From NCBI GenBank assembly GCA_964616425.1, contig CAZTQY010000003.1, positions 47,402 through 111,401 of the forward strand: a stretch of DNA of 64,000 nucleotides, in the 5' to 3' direction. Each line of letters opens with the position of its first letter. Position 1 is the first letter of the stretch. Below are positions 34,476-56,806 of the stretch, in pieces. Under the pieces are notes generated by a model. It did not search any database and was not told where the DNA came from. It worked only from the letters and a program-made list of their open reading frames with translations. The DNA comes from an uncultured Candidatus Saccharibacteria bacterium (lineage in GTDB: Bacteria; Patescibacteriota; Minisyncoccia; Phycocordibacterales; DATDWN01). Position numbers and translations under genes: made by a program.

Positions 34476-34543
34476 TCCACACCTCAATCATTTTTAGTTT
34501 TGTTTTGCATTAAAATATTGTACACTGATATACATACAGTTGT

Positions 34544-35434: not shown

Positions 35435-35476
35435 ATTGTGTGAAGGAGTCTCTACCTTCTCATTTAATTTTACTCA

Positions 35477-35788: not shown

Positions 35789-35810
35789 TCAAAAGACACT
35801 AATCTGAAAT

Positions 35811-36512: not shown

Positions 36513-36574
36513 TAGACACCCTCATGTTTTTGTTGTAAAGTGTTTGTGGCTTAAGTCCTTTCCTGAGGAGTGTA

Positions 36575-36804: not shown

Positions 36805-36810
36805 GGACGA

Positions 36811-36848
36811 GCGACCGACGACCGGACCCAATGCGGGCCGGTCGTTTA
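36811..36848 (+). terminator. Terminator of cassette G
   Basis: cgaccggaccc aat gcgggccggtcg followed by ttt. Confidence 0.55.
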
Positions 36849-36902
36849 ACTTATATTTTAAATATTTTCAAAAAATTTGTTATACTAAATAAAACTTTAT
36901 TT

Positions 36903-39164: not shown

Positions 39165-39325
39165 ACTTCCAAATTTGGCGAATACCACAAGAGTACTTCT
39201 TGTTTTATAAACAAAACAAAGTCGCTCCTCGTTCCCAAATTAAAAATATTCGTCACCTTACAGGTGTAAGGCTCCTCATCTTTTTAATTTCTCACGTCGG
39301 ATTTCATTCAAATTATGAAAGTTTG
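39165..39325. mobile_element. MITE-like repeat, family alpha copy 2 (with about a 40-bp internal insertion relative to copy 1)
   Basis: Starts directly after the smc stop. Same TIRs and the same tcgtcacctta..taaggctcctcatctttttaatttctcacgtcggatttcat core as 7113-7230. Confidence 0.45.
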
Positions 39326-39333
39326 GTGTACTA

Positions 39334-39363
39334 TTGACTATATAGTCAAGATAGTGGTATAAT
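39334..39363 (+). promoter_or_regulatory. Promoter TTGACT-18-TATAAT for cassette H
   Basis: ttgactatatagtcaagatagtggtataat. Confidence 0.5.
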
Positions 39364-39395
39364 ATGTAAGTATAGTTCGTTAACAATTACTTGTG

Positions 39396-39446
39396 AAGTG
39401 GTTAGCCAAAAGCCCCTGAAAATCAAGGGTTTTTGGCTAACCACTT
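39396..39446 (+). promoter_or_regulatory. Leader hairpin with 20-bp perfect stem between promoter and cassette H gene; candidate attenuator or regulatory structure
   Basis: aagtggttagccaaaagccc ctgaaaatcaa gggtttttggctaaccactt. Confidence 0.4.
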
Positions 39447-39510
39447 CTGGAAAGCCCCTTAACTCGCGGGTAGCGAGAAACTTCTCGGCAATTAGCCGAA
39501 AAGGAGAAGT

Positions 39511-40044
39511 ATGATCAAGAACAGCGAACTCAACTTGGGTCAGATCGAGGCGATCGTCAACAAGCTTGGTGGGATGAGTGGTGTTGACCGTTTCCTCGCT
39601 GGTGAGTTGGTTGTCGTCCCGGCATATTCTGCCGTTGTGGACTACAGCCAGTCACTTGTTGAGATGGTCTCTGCAGGGAAGTACGACTGGGTGAGCGAGG
39701 GTATCACTGAGAAGAACTTCCCTAAAACCATGTCGGGCAAAGTTCGGGTCAATTTCGAACTTGTCCACTTCAATCGGAACATCACGTCGGACATCGCAGT
39801 GATGGGGCTCGGTGGGATGGGATTACGCCCTGCGACCATCTGGGAACTTCTAGCATTCGGGGCTAAGTACCCCGAACTTCAGAGAGAGTTTCCTGTCGTC
39901 GCCCTAGGATCGGTCGCCAAGATTGAGGATTCTCGTCATGTTGTCGGTTTCTTCATGATTGTTTCCAAGCGGAGTGTTGATCACCTCTGCACGTGGGGTC
40001 ATGATTGGACACGTAACGTGCGTTTCCTCGCCGTTCGCAAGTAA
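39511..40044 (+). CDS. High-GC cassette H gene 1: hypothetical 177-aa protein
   Basis: SD aaggag, GC about 55%, followed by a terminator. Confidence 0.5.
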   Translation: MIKNSELNLGQIEAIVNKLGGMSGVDRFLAGELVVVPAYSAVVDYSQSLVEMVSAGKYDWVSEGITEKNFPKTMSGKVRVNFELVHFNRNITSDIAVMGLGGMGLRPATIWELLAFGAKYPELQREFPVVALGSVAKIEDSRHVVGFFMIVSKRSVDHLCTWGHDWTRNVRFLAVRK

Positions 40045-40106
40045 GAAAATTGGATTCGTGCTCTTCTCCATAAAAAGAGAGCTCCTCGCCTTGGAGGTCA
40101 AAGGTG

Positions 40107-40135
40107 GCCCAGCATACGTGCTGGGCTTATTCGTA
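40107..40135 (+). terminator. Terminator after cassette H gene 1
   Basis: gcccagcatacgtgctgggc followed by ttattcg. Confidence 0.45.
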
Positions 40136-40280
40136 TATAAATTAAAGTAGTGTTATTCCAAGACTCTCGACAATCGAGGTCTATAGTGATTGCTTCGAAC
40201 TTCACTCAGTTTATGAAAGTTTGAGAGGAATAATTTGACTTTTGTAAAAATTGTGTTAGATTCTTTGGTGGAGAAATTAT

Positions 40281-40484
40281 ATGACAATCATGCATGTTAT
40301 CGGAATTATTGGGTGCCTCAAAAATCGGCGCCCTGTGTCGGAAAGACAGGTTGTGGAAGTGCGAAGGGCTCTTGACCACAACCACTCCCTTCGTTCAAAA
40401 GTGGCTCACCAGTACGGGGTTTCTGTCGAGAAAATCGGCGAGATCCTCAACATGAAGCCACATCTTCCACCACGGAGGCGTTAG
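40281..40484 (+). CDS. High-GC cassette H gene 2: small HTH-type DNA-binding protein (67 aa)
   Basis: Own promoter TTGACT-16-TAGATT, SD ggtggag, and an HTH-like ..LRSKVAHQYGVSVEKIGEIL segment. Confidence 0.45.
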   Translation: MTIMHVIGIIGCLKNRRPVSERQVVEVRRALDHNHSLRSKVAHQYGVSVEKIGEILNMKPHLPPRRR

Positions 40485-40514
40485 ACTAGACATATTTTTC
40501 TGTTCGCGGATTGG

Positions 40515-40549
40515 GGGCTCGGAGACATGATCTCTGAGCCCTTTGTGTT
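40515..40549 (+). terminator. Terminator of cassette H gene 2 (abuts the rnr stop)
   Basis: gggctcggagacatgatctctgagccc followed by tttgtgtt. Confidence 0.5.
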
Positions 40550-42473
40550 ATTGCAAAGCATAGTCCAAAACTCTACGATCTAGATCTGCAGAAACTACTT
40601 TGAATTTTACTGAGTCACCTAGCATAAACTTCTTTCCAGTTTTTTCACCTTTGAGTGTGTAGTTTTTTTCATCGAGAGAGTAAAAGTCATCACCGATGTC
40701 ACGTATCTTTACCATGCCTTCGCATTTTGTTTCTTTGTCTTCAATAAAAATTCCAAACTCTGAAACGCCTGTGATAGTTCCATCAAAAGTCTCACCGATA
40801 TGTTCCATCATGTATTCCACTTGTTTGTATTTAACACTAGCTCGCTCAGCATCACTAGCTCTTTTTTCAAGCTCACTTGAGGCTATACATATACTCTCGA
40901 ACTTTTGGTATTCATCTAGTTCTATTTTACCGCCTTTCAGTTCTCTCTCTAAAAATCTATGAACTAACACGTCTGGGTATCTTCGGATAGGAGAAGTAAA
41001 GTGTGTGTAGTAAGCGAAGGCCAAACTAAAATGTCCAATATTTTTTGTTGAATAAACTGCTTTTTGCATACTTCTAACTGTCGCGGTATTTATGAGTTCC
41101 TCGTTTGGAGTACCTTTTGCATCAGCTAGGAGTTTGTTCAGATCTTTTGAAGTTACTTCTCCGTCTTCGTTGTGTAGATCAAAACCAAGAGCTTTTAGGA
41201 AAGTTGCTAGGTCTTTGATTCTGTCTTTGTCTGGTTTTGCGTGGATGCGATAAACTGACTGCCAACCTTTTTTCTTTATATCTTGGTTCTGAGACATAAA
41301 AATAAACTTTGCTACTGCTCTGTTAGCTAGGAGCATGTATTCCTCAACCAGTTTGTGAGTATCGAGTCTGTGTTTTCTGTATACAGATATAGGTTTTCCT
41401 TTTTCGTCTAATATAAATTTTACCTCATCTGTATCAAAAACCATCGCACCATTTTTAATTTTATTTTTTTCAAGAATTTGAGCAATTTCTCGAAGTTTAA
41501 GTAGTTCATTTCTGTATGGGCCATCTTGTTTACCATCGATAACTTCTTGCGCATCTTCGTAAGTAAAACGTCTGTCACTATGTATAACTGTTCGGCCAAA
41601 CCATTCTTCTAATACTTTTCCGTCACCTGACATTTTAAATACAGCAGAAAATGTTAGCTTGTCCTCGTTCGGGTTCAGTGAACATAGGTCATTGGAAAGG
41701 ACTTCTGGAAGCATGGGTATGGTTCTGTCGACTAGGTATACAGATACTCCTCGTTTCTCAGACTCACGATCTAGTTCTGAACCAGGTGTTACAAAGTGAG
41801 ATACATCGGCGATGTGTATTCCTATCTCATATATGTCATCACCAAGGTCTTTGAAAGAAATAGCATCGTCAAAATCCTTTGCTTCCAAAGGATCTATCGT
41901 CATAGTGATTGTGTCACGCATGTCCCTTCTATTTTTTATTTCGTCAGAGAGAGTTTTTTTGTAGTTCGCTAGAACTTCCTCGGCTTCTGCTTCTTCTGCA
42001 GGAGGGAATTCAACACGAAATCCTTTTTCCAAAACTATAGACTCCATTTCTGCATTGTTTTCACCTTTTTTACCGATAACTTTTACTATTTCTCCACGTA
42101 GAGTATCCCAGTCAACTATTTTTACTAGAACTTTTGTGTCTATTGGAACATTTTCAACATTGTCTAGAAAAATATCTACATACATTCTTTTGTCATCTGG
42201 TACTACAAATGTTTTACCATCGTTTGTTTCAACTGTTCCAACAAACTCTTCTTTGACTCGTTTTATTATTTTCTCAACTTTGCCTTGTTCTCGATTTTTT
42301 ATTTTTTGTCCAAGCAAAACAACTTCAACTGTGTCTCCATGGAAAGCTCGGTTCACATTTGAGGGTTGTATTTCAATACTATTTGTTCGGTCTTTTACTT
42401 CTGGGTTAGGATCAAAAAAACCAACGCCTTTTGAGTTGATGCTTATGGGACCTATTAGAGAATCTTTTTTCAT
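40548..42473 (-). CDS. rnr: Ribonuclease R / RNase II family exoribonuclease
   Basis: RNB domain (DPLEAKDFDDAIS), OB folds, and a C-terminal S1 domain. Confidence 0.9.
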   Translation of the reverse strand: MKKDSLIGPISINSKGVGFFDPNPEVKDRTNSIEIQPSNVNRAFHGDTVEVVLLGQKIKNREQGKVEKIIKRVKEEFVGTVETNDGKTFVVPDDKRMYVDIFLDNVENVPIDTKVLVKIVDWDTLRGEIVKVIGKKGENNAEMESIVLEKGFRVEFPPAEEAEAEEVLANYKKTLSDEIKNRRDMRDTITMTIDPLEAKDFDDAISFKDLGDDIYEIGIHIADVSHFVTPGSELDRESEKRGVSVYLVDRTIPMLPEVLSNDLCSLNPNEDKLTFSAVFKMSGDGKVLEEWFGRTVIHSDRRFTYEDAQEVIDGKQDGPYRNELLKLREIAQILEKNKIKNGAMVFDTDEVKFILDEKGKPISVYRKHRLDTHKLVEEYMLLANRAVAKFIFMSQNQDIKKKGWQSVYRIHAKPDKDRIKDLATFLKALGFDLHNEDGEVTSKDLNKLLADAKGTPNEELINTATVRSMQKAVYSTKNIGHFSLAFAYYTHFTSPIRRYPDVLVHRFLERELKGGKIELDEYQKFESICIASSELEKRASDAERASVKYKQVEYMMEHIGETFDGTITGVSEFGIFIEDKETKCEGMVKIRDIGDDFYSLDEKNYTLKGEKTGKKFMLGDSVKFKVVSADLDRRVLDYALQ

Positions 42474-42990: not shown

Positions 42991-43062
42991 GCTGTTGACT
43001 CATTGTATATATACTATTAAAATTAATACCGTAAAGGTTTGGTTTATAATTAACTGAAATCC

Positions 43063-43380
43063 ATGGAAAAAGACGTAGAATTTCTTGATTTTGTTATAAA
43101 AGCTTTGGTTGAGAAACCAGAAGACGTAAAAATAGTTCGAACCGTAGATGAGATGGGTGTGCTTATGACTTTGGATGTTAACAAAGACGACATGGGTAAA
43201 ATCATTGGTCGTGAAGGTAACACAGCAAAGGCGATTCGAACACTTCTTCGAGTTGTTGGAATGAAAAATAACTCAAGAGTAAATCTAAAGATAAATGAAC
43301 CAGCTGATAGTGGCCGAGATATGAAACCAACTAGTGCCACAAAGTCTCTTGATGAGGCAATGTCTGATCTAAATCTTTAA
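43063..43380 (+). CDS. KH-domain RNA-binding protein (KhpA/YlqC-like)
   Basis: KIIGREGNTAKAIRTLL (GxxG loop of a KH domain). Confidence 0.8.
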   Translation: MEKDVEFLDFVIKALVEKPEDVKIVRTVDEMGVLMTLDVNKDDMGKIIGREGNTAKAIRTLLRVVGMKNNSRVNLKINEPADSGRDMKPTSATKSLDEAMSDLNL

Positions 43381-43401
43381 TTTGATATCTATAATTTAAA
43401 T

Positions 43402-43432
43402 AAAAGCACCCTAACTGGGTGTTTTTATTTTG
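43402..43432 (+). terminator. Terminator after the KH gene
   Basis: gcaccctaactgggtgt followed by ttttatttt. Confidence 0.5.
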
Positions 43433-43484
43433 GTAAAACTGTGTTATAATAACCGGAGAAATTTAACCCCGGACAGGAGGGCGG

Positions 43485-43889
43485 ATGGCTATGACTGTCG
43501 TCATCTCGAGTAGGGTCCTAAAGTGGACATTGGTGTTGGTTTTCGCCATGTTCGTTGGCAGTTTGGTACTGCCGACACCTCAGGAACTGGTCAGAGATTT
43601 CCAGATCCAACTGCTCATCGAAGAGCAGAACAAGATCTGTGGAATGCTCGAGGCTGAACTTGAGGCAAGCATCCACCAGCTGTACGGAGTTCCTCAGGAT
43701 CTGATTTTGCCCAAGTCAGTCCAGGAGAACTTTCGTCTGAGGTACGCATCATCCAAGGCTTTTACGGAAGAAGGTGCGCGAAGCCTCGACGATGCAATTC
43801 TGGCCTGTACGGTCAGAACCAAATGGCAAAGTCTGGTTGATAGGATAAGTGAGGGAGCTTTCCCTCATAGATACCAGTCAGCTGACTGA
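43485..43889 (+). CDS. High-GC cassette I: hypothetical protein with N-terminal TM/signal segment
   Basis: Extended -10 tgttataat upstream, SD ggaggg, and a strong terminator. Confidence 0.5.
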   Translation: MAMTVVISSRVLKWTLVLVFAMFVGSLVLPTPQELVRDFQIQLLIEEQNKICGMLEAELEASIHQLYGVPQDLILPKSVQENFRLRYASSKAFTEEGARSLDDAILACTVRTKWQSLVDRISEGAFPHRYQSAD

Positions 43890-43899
43890 CACGGGGGAT

Positions 43900-43932
43900 C
43901 AGGGGAGGCCACAGTGGCCTCCCTTTCTCATA
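43900..43932 (+). terminator. Terminator of cassette I
   Basis: ggggaggccacagtggcctccc followed by tttctcat. Confidence 0.6.
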
Positions 43933-43965
43933 TACAAAAATAGAAAATTGTGGTATAAATTCGGA

Positions 43966-44619
43966 ATGAATTTTCATATCATAAGTCTTTTTCCTAACGC
44001 ATTCGACTCATATCTAAATGAGTCTATTATTTCTCGTGCAATAGAGGATAAGAAAATTAAAGTCAGTTTTTATAACCCTCGTGATTATTCTGATGATAAA
44101 TGGAAAAGGGTTGATCAGAAACCATATGCTGGTGGCCCAGGTATGGTTATTCAGGCTCTGCCTGTCATCAAAGCAATACAGAAAGCTTTGATGAAGTTAA
44201 AAGTTAAAAGTAAAAAGTCGAAAGTAAAGATTATTTTTTTCTCTCCTGGTGGGAAGGAGTTTAATACAGACTATGCAAAAAAATCTGCAAAAAAATACAC
44301 TGATATTATTTTTGTTTGCGGGAGATATGAAGGTATTGATGCTCGAGTAAAAAAAGTTTTTAAAATGGAAGATGTATCTATTGGAAATTATGTTTTAACT
44401 GGTGGCGAGTTGCCAGCTATGGTGTTGATCGATTCTATTTCTCGACAGGTTGAAGGAGTGCTCGGTAACTTTAACTCTCTAGAGGAGTCGCGTGTTTCTA
44501 GTCACGACTCATACACAAGGCCAGAAGTTTTTGAATATAAAAAGAAAAAATACAGAGTGCCAAAGGTTTTGCTTTCAGGAAATCATAAAGAGATTGAGGA
44601 GTGGAAAAGAACTAGATAG
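43966..44619 (+). CDS. trmD: tRNA (guanine37-N1)-methyltransferase
   Basis: SPOUT knot motifs: ISLFPN, GGPGMV, YEGIDARV, NYVLTGGELPAMVLIDS. Confidence 0.9.
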   Translation: MNFHIISLFPNAFDSYLNESIISRAIEDKKIKVSFYNPRDYSDDKWKRVDQKPYAGGPGMVIQALPVIKAIQKALMKLKVKSKKSKVKIIFFSPGGKEFNTDYAKKSAKKYTDIIFVCGRYEGIDARVKKVFKMEDVSIGNYVLTGGELPAMVLIDSISRQVEGVLGNFNSLEESRVSSHDSYTRPEVFEYKKKKYRVPKVLLSGNHKEIEEWKRTR

Positions 44620-44629
44620 AATTTTTTAG

Positions 44630-44750
44630 AGACAAAAACTTTTCCAGCGAAAAGTTTTTTCTGTCCTCAGCCTTGATTTGTCAATGAGCTCTGATTACAG
44701 AGTCGTTGACAAAGCCATGCTCAAGGCTTGCGGATGCTCTAAAAAACGTC
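44630..44750. ncRNA. Candidate structured RNA element gamma, copy B
   Basis: Shares the conserved blocks of copy A. The long-range helix covaries (agccttga/tcaaggct), as does the internal hairpin (ctctg/cagag). Confidence 0.4.
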
Positions 44751-44848
44751 TATCTAGTTCTTTGTGTTTTGGGTAACAAAAAACACCACTCCGACCCAAG
44801 GGGGAAAATTTCTCCCACCTTGTGTCGACGCGGCGTCGTGTGTACTGG

Positions 44849-45223
44849 CTAGACTGCGGCGAGCTGCTGTCCGTGAGCTGTCTGCGGATGCTCGCTCCGG
44901 TTCTCGTTGAAGAGCTCTTCGTACCGGCGGTGCATTTCCGCCTGCTCCTCGAACACGGCGATGAAGGCCGCCAAGGCCTTGGACTGATTCGCCTTGTGTT
45001 CTTCGCTCGATTCCATGTGTGAGCGAACGACGCCGGACTTGAGCATGTCGTTGATGGTCGTGGGTCCCTTGTCGCGCTTGACGATCTTGATGATCTTCAC
45101 CCCGCTCAGGACGGCCGCTGCCATCATGAGTTCTTCCTCGTAGGCCATGCAGGGATGTTCCTGCAACAGGCACTGAACCGACTTACCTTTCAACTTCTCG
45201 TACGTGCCGATCGTTTCCGACAT
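44849..45223 (-). CDS. High-GC cassette J: hypothetical 124-aa protein
   Basis: SD ggagg at 8 nt on the minus strand, GC about 58%. Confidence 0.5.
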   Translation of the reverse strand: MSETIGTYEKLKGKSVQCLLQEHPCMAYEEELMMAAAVLSGVKIIKIVKRDKGPTTINDMLKSGVVRSHMESSEEHKANQSKALAAFIAVFEEQAEMHRRYEELFNENRSEHPQTAHGQQLAAV

Positions 45224-45313
45224 GTGTCTGCCTCCAGGTGAGAATCTTTACATTATATTTTTTTACTGTCAAATACTTTTCCACCTTTTTGTATTGCTGG
45301 TACAATAACTAAC

Positions 45314-47038
45314 ATGACTCAAGCTGAAGCTCTCGATATTTTAAAAATGGGCAAAAATGTTTTTCTCACTGGTCCTGCTGGTAGTGGAAAGACTCATGTT
45401 GTAAATGCGTATGTAAAGTATCTCAAGGAACATGCTGTTGATGTTGCAGTGACAGCATCTACTGGTATCGCAGCTACACACATAGGTGGACAAACTATAC
45501 ACTCATGGTCAGGACTCGGAATAAAAGATACTTTGACGGATTATGACATTGAAAATTTGATGGAGAGGCAGTACCTATATAAAAGATTTGAGAAAACAAA
45601 AGTTTTGATAATCGACGAGGTTTCAATGCTTCATCATTTTCGTCTCGACCTGATTGAGTGGATATGTCGTCAGATGAAACGTAACGAGTCACCGTTCGGA
45701 GGAATGCAAATTATTCTTTGTGGAGATTTTTTCCAGCTTCCTCCAGTTTCCCGCAGACGTTTTGATGGGGTGGATTTTATTGAACCTATAGAGTCTGAGT
45801 TCGCATTCAAAGCAGAAAGTTTTTTGAATTCAAAATTTACTATTTGCTACTTGTCTGAACAGCATAGACAAAAAGATAATACTTATTTATCAATTTTAAA
45901 TCAGATTCGTCAAAATAGAGTTAGTCAGAAAACTATAGATCTTTTGAAAACTCGTTTAAATATGGATCCAGATACGGGTAATGTTGTAACTCGTTTATAT
46001 ACTCACAATATTGATGTTGACGAGATAAACAAGAAACATTTGGGTCTGATAGATGGAAGTGAAAAAGTATATAGAATGAACTCAAAGGGGGCTCCATCTC
46101 TTGTTGAGTCTTTGAAAAAAAGTTGTCTTTCTCCAGAAGAATTAGTTTTAAAAAAGGGAGCAAGAGTGATGTTTACAAAAAATCAGCCTGAAGGTGGGTA
46201 TGTAAATGGAACATTGGGAGTTGTAAAAGACTTTAGCTCGTTTGGTGATCCTATTGTAGAAACAAATAACGGCATGACATTTCATGTATCACCTCAGCCA
46301 TGGAAGATAGAAGAAGAAGGAAAAGTTAAAGCAGAAATCGAACAACTCCCGCTCCGTCTAGCTTGGGCTATTACTGTTCACAAAAGTCAGGGAATGTCTC
46401 TAGATGCAATGGAAGTGGATTTATCAAAATCGTTTGTGAAAGGTATGGGTTACGTAGCTTTGTCACGAGTGCGATCACTAGATGGTATGAAGTTGCTTGG
46501 TTTCAATGACATGTCGCTTGAGATTGATATGGAGGTTTTGGAAATGGATCAGAGTTTTCAGGAAAAGTCAGATGAGGCAGTAGATAAACTAAAATCTATG
46601 GATAGAAAAGATATTGAGGATAAGCAGAAAAAGTTTATCGAAAGTATCGAGCCAGAAGAAAAAGTAAAAATTAAAGGAAAGCAACCGCTGAAAGCGAGCA
46701 GTGGTCGTATGACCGGAAAAGAACAAAAGAAAAGTACCCACGAAATTACTCGTGAAATGTTAGAGAAACAAATGTCTCTTGCGATGATTGCAGATAAAAG
46801 GGGAATCAAACAAGAAACAGTTGTCTCTCATGTTGAGGATTTGGTTAGAGAAAACAACTGTCCAGATATTGATTATCTAAAAAAAGAGTTGAAGCGAAGT
46901 GAGCTAGAGGAGATACTATCTGCTTTCGAAGAGCTCGACACTGATACGTTGTCATCAGTCTATAATTTACTTCAAAAAAGAAAAAAGAAGCCAAGTTATT
47001 TGAAAATTAGAATTGCTCGACTTTTTCTTGGTAAGTAA
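45314..47038 (+). CDS. Pif1-family ATP-dependent DNA helicase with C-terminal HTH-like extension
   Basis: Walker A GPAGSGKTH, Pif1 signature CGDFFQLPPV, Walker B LIIDEVSM. Confidence 0.8.
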   Translation: MTQAEALDILKMGKNVFLTGPAGSGKTHVVNAYVKYLKEHAVDVAVTASTGIAATHIGGQTIHSWSGLGIKDTLTDYDIENLMERQYLYKRFEKTKVLIIDEVSMLHHFRLDLIEWICRQMKRNESPFGGMQIILCGDFFQLPPVSRRRFDGVDFIEPIESEFAFKAESFLNSKFTICYLSEQHRQKDNTYLSILNQIRQNRVSQKTIDLLKTRLNMDPDTGNVVTRLYTHNIDVDEINKKHLGLIDGSEKVYRMNSKGAPSLVESLKKSCLSPEELVLKKGARVMFTKNQPEGGYVNGTLGVVKDFSSFGDPIVETNNGMTFHVSPQPWKIEEEGKVKAEIEQLPLRLAWAITVHKSQGMSLDAMEVDLSKSFVKGMGYVALSRVRSLDGMKLLGFNDMSLEIDMEVLEMDQSFQEKSDEAVDKLKSMDRKDIEDKQKKFIESIEPEEKVKIKGKQPLKASSGRMTGKEQKKSTHEITREMLEKQMSLAMIADKRGIKQETVVSHVEDLVRENNCPDIDYLKKELKRSELEEILSAFEELDTDTLSSVYNLLQKRKKKPSYLKIRIARLFLGK

Positions 47039-47100
47039 TACATACTTGACAAGTTTATATTATATGTTATGTTACCACTCAGTAACTAGGAGGGACGTAA

Positions 47101-47652
47101 GTGGCACATATAGATGAGGCAAGAGCAATTGAATACGTCAGGAATATCACTGTTTCGTATCTGAAGCGCAACGGTGTGCCCTGGCAAGTGTGGGATGATG
47201 CCATCCAGGAAGCACACCTCAAGATGGTCGTTCTCCTGCCCAAGTTCGATCCGACTCTGTCGTCGCTCAATACGTACCTGTACGTGCCGGTCATCGGGGC
47301 AGTCATTGATTTGCTTCGGCGGGCCGAGCACTACACGCGGGGTAAGAACCCGCGAACGATGCTTTCGATCGAGGATTGCAGAGAGCGAGTCAGCTCGTAC
47401 TTCCTTGATCGGGTGACAAGGTGTCGGGAAGAAAATCCTGAGCAGAGGTACTTCATGGACGTTGAGTGGCCGGAAATCGCCGCTCAAATGTTGGCTCGGT
47501 TGGAGCCGAGAGAACGGACTGTCGTCGAGATGTTGTACTTCCGCGGCATGTGCCAATCTGAGGTAGCCGCTCAAGTTGGCCTCTCTCAAAGCCGAGTTGC
47601 TCAGCTCAAGGCCTGCGCCTTCAAACACATGCAGGAAGCAGTTGCTAGTTAG
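47101..47652 (+). CDS. High-GC cassette K: sigma-70 family RNA polymerase sigma factor (small, ECF-like; GTG start)
   Basis: Region 2-like DAIQEAHLKMVVLLPKFDP..YLYVPVIGAVIDLLRR; region 4 HTH LEPRERTVVEMLYFRGMCQSEVAAQVGLSQSRVAQL. SD ggaggg. Confidence 0.7.
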   Translation: MAHIDEARAIEYVRNITVSYLKRNGVPWQVWDDAIQEAHLKMVVLLPKFDPTLSSLNTYLYVPVIGAVIDLLRRAEHYTRGKNPRTMLSIEDCRERVSSYFLDRVTRCREENPEQRYFMDVEWPEIAAQMLARLEPRERTVVEMLYFRGMCQSEVAAQVGLSQSRVAQLKACAFKHMQEAVAS

Positions 47653-47653
47653 A

Positions 47654-47690
47654 GGGCAGTCCTACGAAAAGGGACTGTCCCTTTTCGTAT
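47654..47690 (+). terminator. Terminator of cassette K
   Basis: gggcagtccc tacgaaaa gggactgtccc followed by ttttcg. Confidence 0.65.
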
Positions 47691-47740
47691 ATAAAAAAAT
47701 GAAAATGGTATAATGTGAACATAATATAATATTAATTATT

Positions 47741-48139
47741 ATGAACAATACATATTCTTGGTATCAAAATTTAATAAAACCTACCTGGGCACCACCTAGT
47801 TATTTGTTTGGTCCAGTTTGGTCTGTGCTTTATGTTTTAATCACTGTTTCGTATGGTTATGTTGGTTATTTGTATTTTGCGAAAAAGATTCCGTTTGTTG
47901 TGGTTCTACCTTTTATTTTGAATTTAATTTTTAATTTTGCTTTTTCTCCTATCCAGTTTGGATTACAAAATAATGTTTTGGCTTTGGTGGATATTTTGCT
48001 GGTTTTTGGAACTCTAGTCTGGGCGCTGTATTCTATATATCCGTATTTACCATGGGTCTCATACATTAACGTTCCTTATCTTCTATGGGTTTCTTTTGCG
48101 ACAGTTTTACAAATGACGATTACATATCTAAATAAATAA
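47741..48139 (+). CDS. TspO/MBR family membrane protein (short)
   Basis: WYQNLIKPTWAPP..GPVWSVLYVL signature. Confidence 0.75.
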   Translation: MNNTYSWYQNLIKPTWAPPSYLFGPVWSVLYVLITVSYGYVGYLYFAKKIPFVVVLPFILNLIFNFAFSPIQFGLQNNVLALVDILLVFGTLVWALYSIYPYLPWVSYINVPYLLWVSFATVLQMTITYLNK

Positions 48140-48471
48140 TGAAAAAAGATATTGATTTGGGTTTTATTCCACCAGCCAATGTTTCCAAAGAGGCTATTGA
48201 AGGATTGCGACTTAGGAAAAAGTTTGGTCGTGGTGGAACTATGGTTGGTGTTGCTCGCGCTAGGGATTTGAAGAACAGAAGACGATTGTCGAAAAAAACT
48301 ATTATTCGTATGTACTCATATTTTTCTAGACACAATGTCGACAAGCAGGGTAAAGATTTTTTTAATGAAATAAAGCCTTCCAATGGAAAGATTGCGTGGC
48401 TCCTGTGGGGCGGAGACAGTGGAGCAAGGTGGTGTTATGAGGTGTATAATAAGATAAAGTCTAAAAGTTAA
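48139..48471 (+). CDS. Hypothetical basic protein
   Basis: ORF with Lys/Arg-rich composition. No recognisable domain. Confidence 0.45.
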   Translation: MKKDIDLGFIPPANVSKEAIEGLRLRKKFGRGGTMVGVARARDLKNRRRLSKKTIIRMYSYFSRHNVDKQGKDFFNEIKPSNGKIAWLLWGGDSGARWCYEVYNKIKSKS

Positions 48472-48636
48472 AATACCAAAACACAGGAGCCTGTGGGGGG
48501 AGGTTGGGATTGGGACCCAACCGCAAGGCCGGAGCGCGGCGGCGCGAGGAGGGGTCGCAAGAAAAGTCAGCAGACTTTTACTTGTGACGTGACTCTCGAG
48601 CAAGATGGTGTTACGAAGTATATAAAAAAATAAAGA

Positions 48637-49635
48637 ATGAAACTTAGAGCATTGTATATTTTTACTGTCATATTGGTTATCTCTGGATTTTTTTATTTTA
48701 GAAATCCAGAGCATATATTTTTCTCTAGCATAAACATTTTCCAAGAACAAAAATTTTCTATTTTGAATTTTGGTGATGTGATGTTTGATAGAGGAGTTAG
48801 GAATATTATTGAAAACAGGGGTAGAGATCCGTTTGAATACATAAAAAAGGATTTAGATTTGATAAAAAAATATGATGTTGTTATTGCAAACCTGGAGGGT
48901 CCAATAGTGGAGATGGACAGGTCTCTCTGTCAGCAGAAAGCCTATAACTTTCAGTTTGCTCCCGATACTACAGATAGACTAAAGAGCGTTGGAATAAATA
49001 TGGTAAACATAGCAAACAACCATTCATATGACTGCTTTAGTCAGGGTTTTGAAAGTACAAAAAAATATTTGCAAAAAGCTGGGATTGATTATGTTGGTGA
49101 TACAGATATCGAAAAGAGTTATGTTGTTAAAAATATAAACGGAAAGAAAATTGCATTTGTTGGCATAGACCAGACTCTCCAAGCAATACCAGTTTCTAGT
49201 TTTTATCCTTTGATAAAAAAACTTAAATTAGAAAACGACTTTGTTGTAGTTGATATACATTGGGGCACAGAGTATGAGTTGACTGAGACTCCGACCCAAA
49301 CAGCTATTGCTCACAAGCTAATAGATAGTGGTGTAGATATTATTTTCGGACATCACCCACATGTCATAGAGCCAGTTAGGATATATAACGGAAAGGCGAT
49401 TTTCTACTCACTTGGAAATTTTGTTTTTGATCAGGTTGGAGAAAATGAGAATTCTGGTATTGGTGTTGGGGCAGAGTTCCAAAGTGGGAAGATAAAGTTT
49501 GAAATAATGCCTTATAAAATAAAAATATTTGATACAGATTTTCTAAAATACACAGATAAAAATAATTTTTGTGAAAAGTTTTTAAAAGATATAAAACACA
49601 ATAGTTGTAGTTTCGAATTGACAACTGGCCGTTAA
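48637..49635 (+). CDS. CapA/PgsA-family metallophosphatase (poly-gamma-glutamate capsule synthesis-like)
   Basis: ANLEGP, NIANNH, and GHHPHV motifs. Confidence 0.8.
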   Translation: MKLRALYIFTVILVISGFFYFRNPEHIFFSSINIFQEQKFSILNFGDVMFDRGVRNIIENRGRDPFEYIKKDLDLIKKYDVVIANLEGPIVEMDRSLCQQKAYNFQFAPDTTDRLKSVGINMVNIANNHSYDCFSQGFESTKKYLQKAGIDYVGDTDIEKSYVVKNINGKKIAFVGIDQTLQAIPVSSFYPLIKKLKLENDFVVVDIHWGTEYELTETPTQTAIAHKLIDSGVDIIFGHHPHVIEPVRIYNGKAIFYSLGNFVFDQVGENENSGIGVGAEFQSGKIKFEIMPYKIKIFDTDFLKYTDKNNFCEKFLKDIKHNSCSFELTTGR

Positions 49636-49681
49636 AGATTTATATAAGATATAGAACAAAGTCCATGGAGGGGCGAAAACT

Positions 49682-50059
49682 ATGTCTGTAAGTAGGAGTT
49701 GGGTTGTCGAGATCGATGATTCGATGAGCATCGCAATCATCACGTCGGTAAAGCTTCGGGGTAACTTCGGAAACGGGACCAGAACTTTCTATCCGGGTCA
49801 GCGAGTCCTGCTGACCGTGGATGTCACGGCTCTCGGTCTCGTAAAGGGAGATGAGGTCGTTATTCAAAGCCTCAGCATTCCTGGCGGAGGCAGAAAGTTC
49901 ATCCAGATCGGTCCTGTGCCAAGCGGACAGAAGGTTGACATTTCTCACCTCCAAGTTGCTGAGCTTCCTCAGTCGGTGGAGCCTGCACTGCCGGATTCTG
50001 TTCCTCATGACTGCTCGGCAGTCGAGGAGCCGGAGCCGGCTGGCTACGGTCTCGTCTGA
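49682..50059 (+). CDS. High-GC cassette M gene 1: hypothetical 125-aa protein
   Basis: SD ggagggg, followed by a terminator. Confidence 0.5.
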   Translation: MSVSRSWVVEIDDSMSIAIITSVKLRGNFGNGTRTFYPGQRVLLTVDVTALGLVKGDEVVIQSLSIPGGGRKFIQIGPVPSGQKVDISHLQVAELPQSVEPALPDSVPHDCSAVEEPEPAGYGLV

Positions 50060-50075
50060 AGATCTTTTCTTTACG

Positions 50076-50114
50076 CCTCGCGTGTGGTTTTCACCACTCG
50101 CGAGGTTTCACTTT
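50076..50114 (+). terminator. Terminator, copy 1 of a duplicated terminator element
   Basis: cctcgcgtgtggttttcaccactcgcgagg followed by tttcacttt. Confidence 0.6.
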
Positions 50115-50122
50115 AAAAAAAT

Positions 50123-50151
50123 TTGACCATTGGTGGTATTAAGATTATAAA
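50123..50151 (+). promoter_or_regulatory. Promoter TTGACC-17-TATAAA for cassette M gene 2
   Basis: ttgaccattggtggtattaagattataaa, then SD aggagg. Confidence 0.5.
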
Positions 50152-50168
50152 TATGTGTAGGAGGAGCT

Positions 50169-50558
50169 ATGTCAAAAAGCTCAGTTTACTACTATGTCGG
50201 CTACGACAAGAGCGAGGGAGCTGAGCCAAGAGTCGAGTCGGTCTCAGTTGAGACTGCATCGCGGTCCTTGTACTTCGAGTTGTCGGGTACGATTATCTTG
50301 GAGAAATTCATCCACGGCTTGAGTCGGACTTTTTTCCCAGCTGAGAGAGCCAGTATTATGGAGCTGAAGGCTCCATGCTTTTCAAGCAGTGAAGAAGATT
50401 TGGCTTTTATCGGGGCTATGTTCGAAGGTTCCGACGAGTTGGTTTGGGTTCGACTCAGCCAGGTCAAGAAAGCGTTCACTGCGAAGAAAAGCGAAAGGAG
50501 TGAGGTTCATCCAGAAGATCTGTATGTCTACCCACCCGCTGGCTCCGAGCCGTTCTAG
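50169..50558 (+). CDS. High-GC cassette M gene 2: hypothetical 129-aa protein
   Basis: SD aggagg, with its own promoter and terminator. Confidence 0.5.
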   Translation: MSKSSVYYYVGYDKSEGAEPRVESVSVETASRSLYFELSGTIILEKFIHGLSRTFFPAERASIMELKAPCFSSSEEDLAFIGAMFEGSDELVWVRLSQVKKAFTAKKSERSEVHPEDLYVYPPAGSEPF

Positions 50559-50581
50559 TTCCGTCTACCCCTAGTACCTCG

Positions 50582-50621
50582 CGTGTGGTCGTTCACCACC
50601 CGCGAGGTTTCTCTTTGTTAG
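50582..50621 (+). terminator. Terminator, copy 2 of duplicated element
   Basis: cctcgcgtgtggtcgttcaccacccgcgagg followed by tttctcttt. Confidence 0.6.
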
Positions 50622-50698
50622 AACTCACATAAATTTGACGCTTTTTGAAAAATTTATTGAAGTAATTGACATCAAGAACCTAATGGTATAATTGTCTT

Positions 50699-53600
50699 AT
50701 GAAAAAATTAATGTATATTTTAATCGCCGTCATTGTGCTGAACGGCTTTTTTATTACAAAAACGTATTCTTATTCTTCGTCAGATTTAAATAATAATGGA
50801 ATTCTCGATAACACTGAGTCAGAGGTAATAGTGGATACAAATCAAACACTTCCTTCAGGAGAATACATATTCAATGATTTATATATTACTAATGGCGCAA
50901 CACTGACTTTGGAAGGTAACCCGGATTCTCTAGAATCTTTTAAGGGTGTGAAAATAATTTCAAATAATTTAACTGTAGATTTTGATTCTTCAATCTCCGC
51001 AGACAAAAATGGTTACGGATATTTGTCGGGACTAGGAGCACCAACAACTTTGTATTCTGACGGTGCAAGTTACGGAGGTGCTGGTAGTGGTAACAGTACT
51101 TCCACAATATATGGTTCTTCTGAAATTCCATTGGACCTAGGTAGTGGTGGGGTATTAAATGGTGGTGGAGCAATTCAGCTTATAATCAGTAATAGTTTAA
51201 TAAATAATGGAAGCATTTCAGCCAGAGGGGATGCTTCAGGTAGTGGAGGTAGTATATATGTAAGAACTGGTAGTCTCATGGGTTCTGGTGTTTTTGACGC
51301 AGATGGGGGTAGACTTTTTGCACGCGGATATTTTTGGGGTCCTGGTGGAGGTGGTCGTGTAGCCGTGTATTATAATTCATCAAATTTTTCTGGAACAGTT
51401 TCAGCAAATGGTGGTTGTGGTAGCTATGATGGTTGGTCTATGACTTGTGCAGAAAATGGTACTGCGGGCATGTTTGACGTTCTTGGTAATGATTTATATG
51501 TTAATAAATCTTGGAGGTTTCAAAAGAACGATAGTCCAATAAATCTTAATCATATTTATCTAACACCAAATACTGAGTTAAAAACCGATGAGGATGTAAT
51601 AATAAATATTGCTACTCTATTACTTAATTCTAGATCTACTTTGAATTTATCTAAGAATGATACTGTAAATATTCCAAGTATATATTTATCTGGTGAATCA
51701 AAAATAAATCTTTCTGGAGAAGAAATTTTAAATACTAGTTTATTGGATTTGTCTGGTGGCTCAAGTGTAACTGTGGCTCAGAAAAAAGTTTTGAAACTTG
51801 AGATTCCTAAAATATCAATTTCTTTAGATTCATTTATTTCTGCTGATGAAAAGGGATATGATTATGGTACTGGACCTGGATCTTCTCCAGAATATACATC
51901 AGGGGCAAGTTATGGGGGGTTGGGCTATAACAATATACCTAGTTCAATCTATGGGTCAGATTTAGCTCCCATAGATTTTGGTAGTGCTGGTAACGGTCGT
52001 AATCCAAACGGTGGCGGTGCTATCCGTTTGATTGTATCTGATACTCTGTTAAATAATGGGAGGATATCTGCAAATGGTTCAAATACTTCAAGTGGTGGAA
52101 GTGTTTATATTACAACTAAAAAATTGGATGGAACTGGAGTTATTCAGGCGAATGGTGGCCCCTCATATTGTCCAAATATCTGCTTGGGTCCTGGTGGAGG
52201 AGGTCGTGTGGCTGTGTATTATCAAGATAATACATTTACTGGTTCAATAAAGGCTTCAGGTTATAGTGGGTACGGAGGATTTAGTGAGAATGGTACAGTT
52301 GTGTTTGAATCATCAACTCCAGAATGTGCTGTAGATTGTTTTTCAAATGTTTTATTTATTCCTGGACTCGAAGCAAGTAGGTTGTACGAAAAGAAGACTG
52401 TTCTTGGGATAGAAGTTGAAGATCAATTGTGGGAGCCGAATTTTCCAGGGGAAGTGAATAAGCTTTATTTAAATGAGAATGGCTCATCTTTAAATGAAAA
52501 TATTTATACAAAAGATATTATCAGAACTGGTAGTTTATTCGGCTTTTTTCAATTAGATATTTATAAGAGTTTTGAGGACAGTATGGGTAGTCTGGTTTTG
52601 GAGAACAAAATTAATGATTGGGAATCTTTTCCATATGATTGGAGACAGGATGTCCAGGATATTGTCGATAATGGGACAATGTATAAAGATGGTCAAGTTG
52701 TTTCAATAATAGACACTCTTCAGTCATTGGTTGATTCATCAAAAAATGGAAAAGTCACAATTATCTCTCATAGTAATGGTGGTTTGATAGCCAAGGCTTT
52801 AGTTAAAAAAATTGGTGAAATGAAGCAATCAGGTCAAAGTGATTTGATTGATCATATTGATAGGGTTATTTTAGTCGCTTCTCCTCAACTTGGTACACCA
52901 AGCGCTTTATCTGGTGTATTGCATGGTTATAAACAATCGATACCGGCAGGATTAATGACTGAAATTCAGGCACGTAATTTGGCTAAAAATATGCCGTCTG
53001 CATATGGTCTTTTGCCATCAAAAAAATATTTTGATCAGCTTGGTGTTGGATACGTTGGAATTTTCTCTTCAACTTCTCCGGGAATATATAAAAATATTTA
53101 TAGTAGTGAAATAAATAATTATGAAGAGCAAAATAATTTTATTTTGGGTGTGGAGGGTAGGTCTGAACCTAAAGAAACAGACTTGATCAATCCAATTAAA
53201 GGTAACGAACTATTGTTAGAAAAAGCGGAAAATTTGCATGATTTAATTGATCAGAATGTTTTTCCAGATTCAATTAAAGTTATAGATATAGCAGGTTGGG
53301 GTAAGGAAACTATTTCTGGTATAACATATACAGATTCTGATATACAACCAATATACACAATACGAGGAGACAAAACAGTGGTGGTCCCAAGTGCTTTGTA
53401 TGGACAAGGAACAAAGTATTGGCTGGACTTAAGTCAATCAAAATTGCAACATAATAATATTTTAGAAGATTCTCAGCTCCTAGATTTTATTGTAAGTACA
53501 TTAACTCAAAAACCTCCAGTTTTTTCTCTAGTAACAGATAGTGAGCCTCTACAAGTTGGAGATAGATTACATTTGAGTGTTCATTCTCCAGTTTCTATTG

Positions 53601-54569: not shown

Positions 54570-55157
54570 TTGCAAACTATCTCAAATTTCATAAAAGAAT
54601 ATCAAAAGACAATACTCTGGGGTATTTTGATTTTTGTCGCAACTGGAGCCATTGAGTATTTTTCTGGTAGATCAGTTTTTGGTCCTGATGGAATGTTTGG
54701 ATGGTGGGAGGGGGGTATTTGGAGTTCAGAAAACTCTCAACGTGTAGCAGATGTTTACACTTTTTCTCACATTATTCACGGGATGTTGTTTTACGCGTTT
54801 CTATGGTTGGTTGCTCGCAAGGTTCCAGCAAAATACAGATTTGTTTTTGCTTTGGGTATCGAGGCTGGCTGGGAACTACTAGAAAACTCGCCGATTATTA
54901 TCGACAGATACAGAGCTGTAACTGTTTCTCTGGGTTATGTTGGTGATAGTATTTTAAATTCTCTTTCAGATATTATGTTTGCGGGGTTGGGATTCTTTAT
55001 TGCAAAGTATTCAAAGTTTTGGATTTCAGTTTTGCTTATTGTCGTTATGGAACTCGGAGCTTTGTATTTTGTCAGAGACAACTTAACTTTAAATATTTTA
55101 ATGCTTGTTTACCCGGTTAAGTTTATTCAAGTTTGGCAATCAGCTGGACACGTATAA
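54570..55157 (+). CDS. Polytopic membrane protein (195 aa)
   Basis: At least 5 TM helices and an IEAGWELLENSP motif. Confidence 0.5.
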   Translation: MQTISNFIKEYQKTILWGILIFVATGAIEYFSGRSVFGPDGMFGWWEGGIWSSENSQRVADVYTFSHIIHGMLFYAFLWLVARKVPAKYRFVFALGIEAGWELLENSPIIIDRYRAVTVSLGYVGDSILNSLSDIMFAGLGFFIAKYSKFWISVLLIVVMELGALYFVRDNLTLNILMLVYPVKFIQVWQSAGHV

Positions 55158-55164
55158 AACGAGT

Positions 55165-55199
55165 TGGCCACCCACGCATGTTGCGGGGTGGCCAGATTT
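55165..55199. terminator. Bidirectional hairpin
   Basis: ggccaccc acgcatgttgcg gggtggcc. Confidence 0.4.
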
Positions 55200-55421
55200 C
55201 TAGAGGGCTATGCCTTGATGTTCCATGGACCACAATAGCAGTCCAATCAACAAGAAGAGCACGATGATGCCGAGTGTGAACGCCCGAGGATGTTTCTCGT
55301 ATAGCTGAGCGAGCTCATCCTCGATTTCTTTGTTTGTTGCGTAAGTGCCCCGGTATTCCAGATTCATGGAGCGCTCGACGTCGGTGGTTAGAGCCTCTGG
55401 GTCGGAGATCTCTTGGGTCAT
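55200..55421 (-). CDS. High-GC cassette N gene 1: 73-aa protein with C-terminal TM helix (start at the internal ATG that has the SD)
   Basis: SD gaggaggg 4 nt upstream of ATG at 55421. C-terminal LGIIVLFLLIGLLLW. Confidence 0.45.
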   Translation of the reverse strand: MTQEISDPEALTTDVERSMNLEYRGTYATNKEIEDELAQLYEKHPRAFTLGIIVLFLLIGLLLWSMEHQGIAL

Positions 55422-55454
55422 GCACCCTCCTCTCAAAATAGCATACAGAAGTGT

Positions 55455-55505
55455 AGAATTTTTTCAAATAAGGAAAGGGCCGTCACCTTTGTAAGATGAC
55501 GGCCT
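55455..55505 (-). terminator. Minus-strand terminator for the small ORF 55549-55719
   Basis: ggccgtca..tgacggcc followed on the minus strand by ctttccttatttg. Confidence 0.5.
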
Positions 55506-55548
55506 TGTATTGCGGATTGTGTGGTGGGGGGGTCTTGCGGGGAACTTG

Positions 55549-55719
55549 CTACTTCTGTACTTCTCGTACGACGTAGCCCGTTTCTGGGCTCCATGCGCGG
55601 ACGACGACCTTGGATTCGGGCTGGTCCTGTTTTTCCTCGACCAACTTGACCTCGTCGAGGGCCAGGAAGTGACGGGGAACCACGTGCCCGACGGAACGGC
55701 GACTCCTTAGTGACGGCAT
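55549..55719 (-). CDS. High-GC cassette N gene 2: 56-aa protein (not in the supplied ORF track; below its length cut-off)
   Basis: SD aggaga 6 nt upstream of ATG at 55719, followed by a terminator. MPSLRSRRSVGHVVPRHFLALDEVKLVEEKQDQPESKVVVRAWSPETGYVVREVQK. Confidence 0.35.
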   Translation of the reverse strand: MPSLRSRRSVGHVVPRHFLALDEVKLVEEKQDQPESKVVVRAWSPETGYVVREVQK

Positions 55720-55866
55720 ATTTGTCTCCTACATAAATAGTAGCACAGTATGGTATATATGTCAAGTATATTTAAATATCAATATTTTAACGTATTTTTG
55801 AATAAAAAATTTAGGAAATAAGTTTTGTGATATAATTTCTTCATTAAAATTTAATTTTTTAAAAAA

Positions 55867-56361: not shown

Positions 56362-56760
56362 ATGAAAAACAGAGTCGTCCATTTTGAAATATATGCAGAT
56401 GACGTAGAACGTGCAAAGAAATTCTATGCTGATGTTTTTGGTTGGGAATTTACTGATTGGTCTGGTGTTACTGGCACTCCATACTGGGGAGTTATGACTG
56501 CTCCAATGGGAAGTGCTGAACCTGGAATAAACGGTGGACTAATGAAAAGACGAGGACCACAAGTTTCTCCAGATATTGCTGTTATAGGATATGTCTGCAC
56601 AGTTCAAGTAGAAAATATCGATGAAATAATATCAAAAGTTGAGAACGCTGGCGGTGTTGTATCGATGCCAAAATATGCTTTGGGAGATATGGCTGTGCAG
56701 GCATACTACAAAGATACTGAAGGAAATGTTTTCGGGATTCATCAGGTGATAAAGAAATAA
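56362..56760 (+). CDS. VOC-family (glyoxalase/bleomycin-resistance-like) protein
   Basis: VHFEIYADD..FGWEF..GINGGLM..GNVFGIH motifs. Confidence 0.8.
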   Translation: MKNRVVHFEIYADDVERAKKFYADVFGWEFTDWSGVTGTPYWGVMTAPMGSAEPGINGGLMKRRGPQVSPDIAVIGYVCTVQVENIDEIISKVENAGGVVSMPKYALGDMAVQAYYKDTEGNVFGIHQVIKK

Positions 56761-56806
56761 TTGCAAATAGTTTTTTCTTGTATAGAATAAAAAATAGAGG
56801 TGGCCG

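Follow-up and report, generated by a model that had tools for sequence, protein, structure and literature searches.

A GC-rich sigma-factor gene between Pif1 and TspO

A gene encoding a sigma-70-family protein was identified at positions 47101-47652 (plus strand) of a 64-kb stretch of contig CAZTQY010000003.1 from an uncultured Candidatus Saccharibacteria bacterium; the whole stretch, 64,000 nt long, is hereafter referred to as the window. The open reading frame (ORF) codes for 183 aa, and its GTG start sits directly after an in-frame TAA. Its GC content is 0.543 (0.64 at third codon positions, GC3), against an average of 0.369 in the window outside the GC-rich islands. To the left lies a gene for a Pif1-family helicase (45314-47038, plus strand; Pfam PIF1/AAA_30 on the orthologous product), and to the right the gene for TspO (47741-48139, plus strand; Pfam TspO_MBR). 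An earlier reading of the letters and their ORFs (hereinafter the original prediction) had described a high-GC, 183-aa ORF with a GTG start at this place, with sigma-70-like region 2 and region 4 helix-turn-helix (HTH) and with these two neighbors, and all of this was confirmed.

Family models for both conserved regions matched the protein above their own cut-offs: Sigma70_r4 (PF04545; 3.4e-12, 46.1 bits vs cut-off 24.1, aa 131-178), Sigma70_r4_2 (PF08281; 2.6e-7, 30.6 bits vs 25.7), and Sigma70_r2 (PF04542; 9.6e-7, 29.0 bits vs 24, aa 28-76). The NCBIfam superfamily model TIGR02937 spans aa 12-180 (2.3e-20, 72.9 bits vs 42.9), so that region 2, the region 4 HTH, and the whole-protein model are all represented. 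The extracytoplasmic function (ECF) model PF07638 was marginal (22.1 bits vs 21.1, E = 1.6e-4), and the scores for NCBIfam ECF subfamily models were far under every cut-off. Models of the group-3 subfamilies were likewise not reached, namely TIGR02479 for FliA/WhiG (61 vs 189.6) and TIGR02980 for SigB/SigF/SigG (47.6 vs 234.35, region 4 alone). Judged by its sequence, the protein is a bona fide sigma-70-family member that falls outside every curated subfamily. All PDB sequence matches (9/9) were group-3 sigma factors (SigB, SigF, FliA), matched through region 4. The profile of the remote sigma family was closest to FliA (4e-44), and a GAxIDxLR motif in region 2.4 looks FliA-type by eye on the alignment.

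An AlphaFold2 (AF2) model of the protein was built on a 67-sequence alignment, with a mean predicted local distance difference test score (pLDDT) of 87.4. It comprises a sigma2 domain of three helices covering regions 2.1-2.4 (aa 6-76, 47116-47328, plus strand; pLDDT >90), a linker of low confidence (aa 77-112, 47329-47436, plus strand; pLDDT 52-59), and a sigma4 domain of four helices (aa 113-182, 47437-47646, plus strand) with the HTH and recognition helix at aa 163-182. The sigma3 domain is absent from the model, and sigma2 and sigma4 alone, without sigma3 or region 1.1, correspond to the domain composition of ECF factors. Foldseek searches of the model against PDB returned sigma factors exclusively, both ECF and group 3; ECF SigL and SigH (Mycobacterium tuberculosis) and SigE (Escherichia coli) were among the top matches, and group-3 SigB, FliA, and WhiG were also found.

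The protein therefore resembles ECF (group 4) factors in its two-domain sigma2-linker-sigma4 layout of about 180 aa, in passing TIGR02937, and in its Foldseek matches. It is unlike them in that no anti-sigma gene is adjacent or co-transcribed, the Pif1 and TspO neighbors occur without a sigma gene in relatives, the gene's own promoter (TTGACA/TATGTT) is of the housekeeping type and not of the autoregulated ECF type, and ECF factors are missing from the sequence-level PDB matches. Group-3 factors (FliA/sigma-28, WhiG, SigB/SigF/SigG) are its best sequence relatives among solved structures, but the protein lacks their sigma3 domain, remains far under the cut-offs of TIGR02479 and TIGR02980, and has no flagellar, sporulation, or partner-switching genes near its gene. 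It has the architecture of ECF factors without their genomic context and lies outside the group-3 subfamilies. We regard it as a new and highly divergent member of a known family, ECF-like in architecture and nearest to group 3 in sequence affinity.

The gene carries its own expression signals. A sigma-70-type promoter, not mentioned in the original prediction, is present at 47046-47073 (plus strand), with TTGACA at 47046-47051, a 16-nt spacer, and the TG-extended -10 element TATGTT at 47068-47073 (TTGACA-16-TGnTATGTT); in a promoter scan it matched at 10 of 12 positions, plus the upstream TG. The Shine-Dalgarno (SD) sequence AGGAGG, read from the sequence, stands 7 nt 5' of the GTG start (47088-47093, plus strand). 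A terminator scan placed an intrinsic terminator at 47654-47690 (plus strand), and its hairpin (47654-47680) has a stem of 10 pairs (6 G-C), a 7-nt loop, and the T-rich tail CTTTTCGT, with a folding energy of -16 kcal/mol. Of the 18 terminator-like sites found in 43000-51000 (5.9 expected), it ranks first. The SD and the 10-bp hairpin terminator are thus as originally described, and the unit is monocistronic by layout, with one ORF between its own promoter and its own terminator.

For comparison, 30 related loci with syntenic flanking core genes were fetched from the GTDB genomes of 30 species. None of them (0/30) encodes a relative of the sigma protein at this locus. In the five closest species (L006, L007, L013, L026, and L029), in which Pif1 and TspO are 81-88% (Pif1 up to 90% across the closest GTDB species) and 76-87% identical at the amino acid level to those of the window, TspO directly follows Pif1 at a distance of 13-79 nt; in L006, L007, L026, and L029 (gaps of 13-32 nt), the Pif1 stop is directly followed by 'tataat...' and TspO. 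Because Pif1 abuts TspO in these five species, the segment of about 670 bp at 47039-47712 (plus strand), delimited by alignment against the empty sites, is a lineage-specific insertion; it contains the -35, -10, SD, ORF, and terminator. The extended -10 element of TspO (TGgTATAAT, 47706-47714, plus strand) belongs to the recipient site and not to the insertion, as shown by the 'tataat' after the Pif1 stop in the empty sites. Since the closest species have no sigma gene at this site, the earlier term 'cassette-borne' is a fair description, and the accompanying view of the unit as compositionally foreign and self-contained agrees with its GC content and signals.

An identical sigma protein in the same Pif1-sigma-TspO context was found in four independent assemblies (L001-L004, 98.9-99.9% identical to the window), which shows that the locus is not an assembly artefact. 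A 97.3%-identical variant, differing by five nonsynonymous and seven synonymous changes, is carried by L037. In L015, a different GC-rich ORF of 94 aa occupies the exact Pif1/TspO site, and the anatomy of this module is alike (TTGACT-16-TAACAT, G-rich SD, hairpin terminator).

The genes of the window include those for RNR, GAPDH, transketolase, S2, EF-Ts, GyrB, ThrRS, DnaE, SMC, S16, TrmD, and RpoB. Together with the 30 loci from GTDB, this gene content identifies the low-GC host as a Parcubacteria/Zambryskibacteria-like member of the Patescibacteria. Downstream of TspO, a 110-aa ORF without a Pfam family (48139-48471) overlaps the TspO stop and replaces a conserved 168-aa post-TspO gene of L006, L007, L013, L026, and L029; its GC content is not enriched. 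At Rfam gathering thresholds, the sole match in the window was its only tRNA, tRNA-Thr (anticodon TGT, 20334-20409), which is directly followed by a low-GC HNH-endonuclease ORF (20429-20914); no structured RNA was matched in the sigma island.

A hyperdivergent allele and the remote relatives

HMMER searches over 1.84 billion representative proteins gave 779 matches at E ≤ 1e-3. One of them, P0003 (183 aa), is a clear relative (6.4e-37, 42% identity), and the next match was at 1e-15. Word-indexed protein searches with either allele found nothing further, and P0003 as a query retrieved itself alone. The remote relatives P0005, P0007, and P0010 (about 25-31% identity) have the motif GAIxDxLRxxEGYSR in common. 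Their genes are chromosomal in cellular contigs resembling the candidate phyla radiation (CPR), near genes for ATP synthase, PGA_cap, an EPSP_synthase-family (Pfam) protein, and peptidoglycan enzymes; the GC content of P0005 and P0007 is near that of their own loci, and P0010 is moderately GC-richer (0.479 vs 0.421). Close relatives were found in none of GenBank phages, PLSDB plasmids, IMG/VR, and JGI metagenome contigs: GenBank phages gave four partial matches of about 30% identity, PLSDB gave partial sub-40% matches at most, and a scan of the JGI metagenomes with a two-allele alignment and a conserved flank 24-mer revealed no further alleles. PADLOC, used to look for a link to defense, returned no match for the sigma protein or eight other cassette proteins. 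By these searches, the sigma protein is a near-orphan.

P0003 is encoded at the same Pif1/TspO site in L035 and L036. In L035, Pif1 is 99.1% and TspO 97.7% identical to the window at the amino acid level and the flanking DNA about 96%; a near-identical strain with flanks of 96-99% identity thus carries a sigma allele of 42% amino acid identity. Along the DNA, identity is 95-100% up to about position 47063, within the promoter spacer, falls to about 50% over 47064-47640, and then returns to 95-98%. This allele-specific, idiomorph-like segment (47064-47640, plus strand) ends two codons before the sigma stop, from where high identity continues through the terminator and beyond. The -35 element TTGACA is kept in L035, where the -10 is TATATT, and an equivalent AGGAGG stands before the ATG of this allele. 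The terminator is 95% conserved despite the replaced ORF. Because the -35 element and terminator of the unit itself fall within the conserved flanks, the exchange is ORF-precise.

Between the two alleles, the identities at the three codon positions are 0.57/0.68/0.33, with a nonsynonymous divergence (dN) of 0.55 and a saturated synonymous divergence (dS); the genes flanking sigma in the same strain pair have dS of 0.13-0.30 and dN of 0.005-0.012. The dN/dS ratio of the sigma gene is <1 vs both L037 and L035, and the gene is under purifying selection. Both alleles are intact at 183 aa and align gap-free over 169 aa. An ungapped alignment from residue 1 gives 5% identity, and the correct alignment is shifted by two residues at both termini, so that the equal length is partly coincidental; a reading of equal length as a lack of indels was rejected, since the terminal differences compensate each other. 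Similarity between the alleles peaks in regions 2.1-2.4 (67% identity in the helix of regions 2.3-2.4) and is lowest in the linker (31%) and in the recognition helix of sigma4 (37%). As the helix that reads the -10 element is fairly conserved and the one that reads the -35 element is not, it is probable that each allele has its own specificity for the -35 element or its own sigma4-binding partner.

Among strains with the allele of the window, the sigma ORF differs at 0/552 positions in L002 and 1/552 in L004, with flanks differing by 1-2.7%. In L002, sigma and TspO (47039-48139, about 1100 nt) are free of mismatches amid flanks diverged by 1-2.7%. A zero-mismatch tract of 5.5 kb (28665-34150) is likewise found in L050, compared with 24851-35846, amid 1-2.4% divergence. 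The population is clearly recombining and forms a mosaic of exchange tracts. A cassette-specific conservation in L002 was considered and rejected, the zero-mismatch block being part of this general mosaic.

GC-rich single-gene modules in the window and related species

The sigma gene stands among about 16 GC-rich islands that make up 13.9% of the window, with 50% GC vs 36.9% elsewhere. The others hold small ORFs between core genes and are located at 5331-6050, 10481-10930, 14321-14640, 24321-24940, 28731-29150, 32471-32990, 33631-34220, 36541-36880, 39401-40140, 40261-40580, 43431-43950, 44691-45260, 49651-50680, 55101-55770, and 56861-57290. In nearly all islands, a small ORF is preceded by a strong SD and followed by a stable hairpin (-16 to -28 kcal/mol) with a T-rich tail behind it; most also have a sigma-70-like promoter with a consensus-like TTGACA. 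Family matches among the cassettes of the window were limited to a DUF7736 cassette, a NUDIX cassette, and sigma. The DUF7736 cassette (24504-24896, minus strand; 5.9e-22) also matches PHROG 15963 (2.5e-22) and is the sole cassette with a clear phage link.

Like islands occur in 29 of 29 related species, occupying 7-30% of each locus. Expression signals in these species were compared between GC-rich ORFs (n=62, median 125 aa) and core ORFs (n=217). TTGACA was found upstream of 27% of the GC-rich ORFs vs 2% of the core ORFs (TTGAC, p = 5e-6), and a GGAGG SD before 31% vs 1% (p = 5e-12). Orthologs of cassette genes are still found in synteny at dS >1. The cassette gene c125 and its ortholog in L007 show 61.6% amino acid identity and a dN/dS of about 0.25 at dS 1.33, similar to their flanks; c124 is 74% identical in L043, and the cassette at 43485 is 30-35% identical in L026 and L006, where Pif1 is 88% identical. 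The cassette genes are fast-evolving yet under purifying selection. As they are GC-rich in every lineage, the high GC is maintained and is not a transient trace of recent import; biased gene conversion at recombination-prone slots is a speculative source of it.

Replacement was also observed at other slots. The slot of c124 (44841-45234, with the ORF at 44849-45223, minus strand; compared with L035 1-870) holds a different GC-rich ORF of 101 aa in L035 (25% identity over 77 aa, E = 0.005), flanked by the conserved terminator (44773-44840, 94%) and promoter (45235-45280, 85%). ORF-precise replacement is seen here for a second time, at a slot neighboring that of sigma. L035 additionally carries a DUF2103 module upstream of Pif1. 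In L041 (98.6% core identity), an unrelated ORF of 179 aa stands in place of the 177-aa ORF at 39511-40044 (39325-40560 vs 915-2130), and the 67-aa cassette at 40281-40484 is 63% identical, in a rearranged order. The cassette at 43485 is 97-99% identical in a strain carrying the divergent sigma.

Several repeats were noted near the modules. The adjacent c125 and c129 have nearly identical terminator hairpins (50074-50105 and 50575-50607; CCTCGCGTGTGGT...ACCAC.CGCGAGGT) and unrelated proteins, which could reflect a duplicated 3' end of a slot or a 'chassis' common to the modules. An intergenic element, AT-rich and about 100 nt long, lies after GAPDH (7130-7232) and 5' of the 39511 island (39225-39325), 95-100% identical, and also in L041 (814-915). 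Shorter repeats were seen at cassette borders (24303-24353 vs 44639-44689, 80%; 9400-9432 vs 40193-40225, 79%); neither these nor the AT-rich element had a match in Rfam. The 13-nt sequence GGCTACCGGCGCG, common to the terminator region of the 28754 cassette (29051-29075) and the hairpin by the 32634/32659 island (32903-32930), may be a chance match.

A candidate GC-rich ORF of 167 aa lies at 56807-57310 (plus strand), overlapped by a 181-aa ORF at 56582-57127 (minus strand). Its homologs (31-34%) were found in L015 (13547-14044), L022 (13816-14289), and L020 (7592-7924), and at least those of L015 and L022 directly follow PGA_cap, where the window has c125; a module family is thus not tied to one slot. 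This ORF had been put forward as a possible anti-sigma gene, a role that found no support: it is without a Pfam match, and the homologs belong to species lacking this sigma.

Origin and role of the sigma module

We consider it probable that the gene encodes a functional accessory alternative sigma factor, minimal in having sigma2 and sigma4, which resides as a self-contained single-gene module in a Patescibacteria chromosome. The primary holoenzyme would transcribe the gene from its canonical promoter, and the terminator would insulate TspO, which would keep its own promoter. The protein is predicted to bind the core RNA polymerase (RNAP) through sigma2 and sigma4 and to redirect a fraction of it to another set of promoters. 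The sharp step in identity at the ORF may represent an old polymorphism or an introgressed allele in a highly recombining population, probably a naturally transformable one, in which homologous exchange would homogenize the flanks up to the non-recombinable core and erase linked divergence. With two alleles sampled, we infer that an old or introgressed allele pair kept in a recombining population is the most economical reading. The like slot behavior of the neighboring cassettes counts in its favor.

Several observations weigh against this explanation. No target promoter, regulon, or partner emerged from the analysis, no anti-sigma gene is adjacent, and no second sigma-like ORF was found within the 64-kb window. 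Two allele groups are known, a very small basis for a 'balanced polymorphism'. A flank zone of intermediate divergence, expected under introgression, was not seen in the identity profile, so that extensive recombination after the event has to be assumed. Nor does this explanation account for the persistently high GC of the module.

The mode of allele replacement was compared with elements that vary between strains. Minimal mobile elements, replacement-type flexible islands, and idiomorph-like loci are features of naturally transformable bacteria. The sigma locus is like them in its differing content or divergent alleles between conserved flanks of near-identical strains, in its lack of mobility genes, and in the recombination mosaic of the population, and unlike them in that the unit is a single small GC-rich gene with consensus expression signals, exchanged ORF-precisely between flanks to which its own -35 element and terminator belong. 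Integron cassettes are also small single-ORF accessory units, but the units of the window are scattered and not arrayed, each has its own promoter, and there is no integrase in the 64 kb; no attC-like site is shared, and the hairpins are simple terminators whose sequences differ except in the c125/c129 pair. No integrase or transposase was detected among the ORFs scanned in the window, and no repeat family at cassette ends. An integron or transposon mechanism was rejected on these grounds, namely the missing integrase and transposase, the missing shared end repeat, and the own promoter of each unit.

A phage origin of the sigma gene, as a moron, a prophage remnant, or a recent capture from a Patescibacteria phage or plasmid, is unlikely. 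Morons of phages are units of promoter, gene, and terminator between phage genes, with deviant base composition. The sigma unit fits this description in its own sigma-70-type promoter, single ORF, terminator, deviant composition, and precise insertion between genes, and one other cassette (DUF7736, above) strongly matches a PHROG family. Phages do carry small sigma factors, and PHROG 351 and 1740 match the sigma protein at about 1e-12. These scores, however, are no better than generic sigma similarity, IMG/VR holds no relative, and the GenBank phage and PLSDB matches are partial, with <40% identity. No phage structural or integrase genes lie near the sigma gene, and both of its neighbors are core genes, so that the recipient is a cellular core-gene region and not a prophage. 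The nearest remote relatives are found in cellular contigs with native GC, cassette orthologs have remained at syntenic sites over dS >1, and the module is GC-richer than its host and still so over long divergence. The earlier remark that the size of the protein is typical of phages and ECF systems is likewise not sustained by the generic PHROG scores, the marginal ECF model, and the group-3 PDB matches.

A somewhat weaker candidate, first raised in the original prediction, is that the factor redirects RNAP to the other cassettes of the window as a master regulator of a shared promoter class. The gene does stand among the GC-rich modules, and cassette upstream regions share signals mostly missing from core genes (TTGAC in 10/18 vs 5/35). 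However, a best-match scan and k-mer enrichment for a distinct cassette -35/-10 pair gave TTGAC(A) and GGAGG alone: the shared signals are a canonical sigma-70 -35 element and a strong SD, and the promoter of the sigma gene itself does not differ in type. TTGACA and GGAGG also mark the GC-rich ORFs of 29 related species without a relative of this sigma. Moreover, the promoter of the c124 slot is conserved between strains with two very different sigma alleles, and the set of cassettes varies between strains without regard to their sigma allele. We consequently regard control of the cassettes by this factor as improbable.

It is still less probable that the protein is not a working sigma factor but a sigma-derived DNA-binding regulator, an RNAP-binding decoy, or the product of a decaying gene. 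Its near-orphan status, the long and poorly predicted linker, the Sigma70_r2 score modestly above cut-off, and the absence of the gene from most of the clade, which dispenses with it, would be compatible with such a reading. Against this, sigma2 and sigma4 are both complete and confidently folded in the AF2 model, both alleles keep intact ORFs despite saturated dS, with conservation peaking in regions 2.1-2.4, and the strong expression signals of the gene are retained in both strains.

Least probable of all is a targeted in-situ hypermutation of the transcribed module (retroelement-like or error-prone, GC-biased): at two adjacent slots the divergent stretch coincides almost exactly with the transcribed ORF, the alleles align without internal gaps over 169 aa, and the module class is fast-evolving and persistently GC-rich, but the short-term rates in L002 and L004 are not raised despite their 1-2.7% flank differences, the 43485 cassette is nearly unchanged (97-99%) beside the divergent sigma, 15 billion proteins include two discrete allele groups and nothing in between, changes fall on every codon position with dN < dS, and the window showed neither a reverse transcriptase nor a template repeat.

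Beyond the accessory sigma factor itself, we put forward tentatively, and with less confidence than the reading above, that the gene is a member of an undescribed Parcubacteria class of accessory genes with fixed slots, ORF-precise idiomorph-like replacement, and long-kept deviant GC, and that the two sigma idiomorphs have different promoter specificities. The class as proposed has about 50-57% GC in genomes of 35-40% GC, and consists of fast-evolving single genes, set between core genes, with a consensus TTGACA promoter, a strong GGAGG SD, and a strong hairpin terminator. A full-text literature search found no description of the GC-rich modules or of this sigma; the module class is apparently undescribed, and the context of the sigma gene apparently unusual.

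As a protein, the sigma factor is of an ordinary kind, and its setting is unusual, namely a GC-rich module in an AT-rich core genome with a 42% allele in a near-identical strain. Patescibacteria are uncultured episymbionts with tiny genomes and very few regulators. In such small genomes with few regulators, a further sigma factor that varies between strains gives rare access to the ways in which transcription diversifies. If the tentative proposal is true, the pair of sigma idiomorphs would act as a switch of the transcription program at the level of strains, possibly arising from conflict with a phage or a host. If the class is real and general, it would represent a pool of accessory genes with expression signals of their own, in which an unexplained force maintains the high GC, and it would offer natural portable promoter, ribosome-binding-site, and terminator parts for an intractable phylum.

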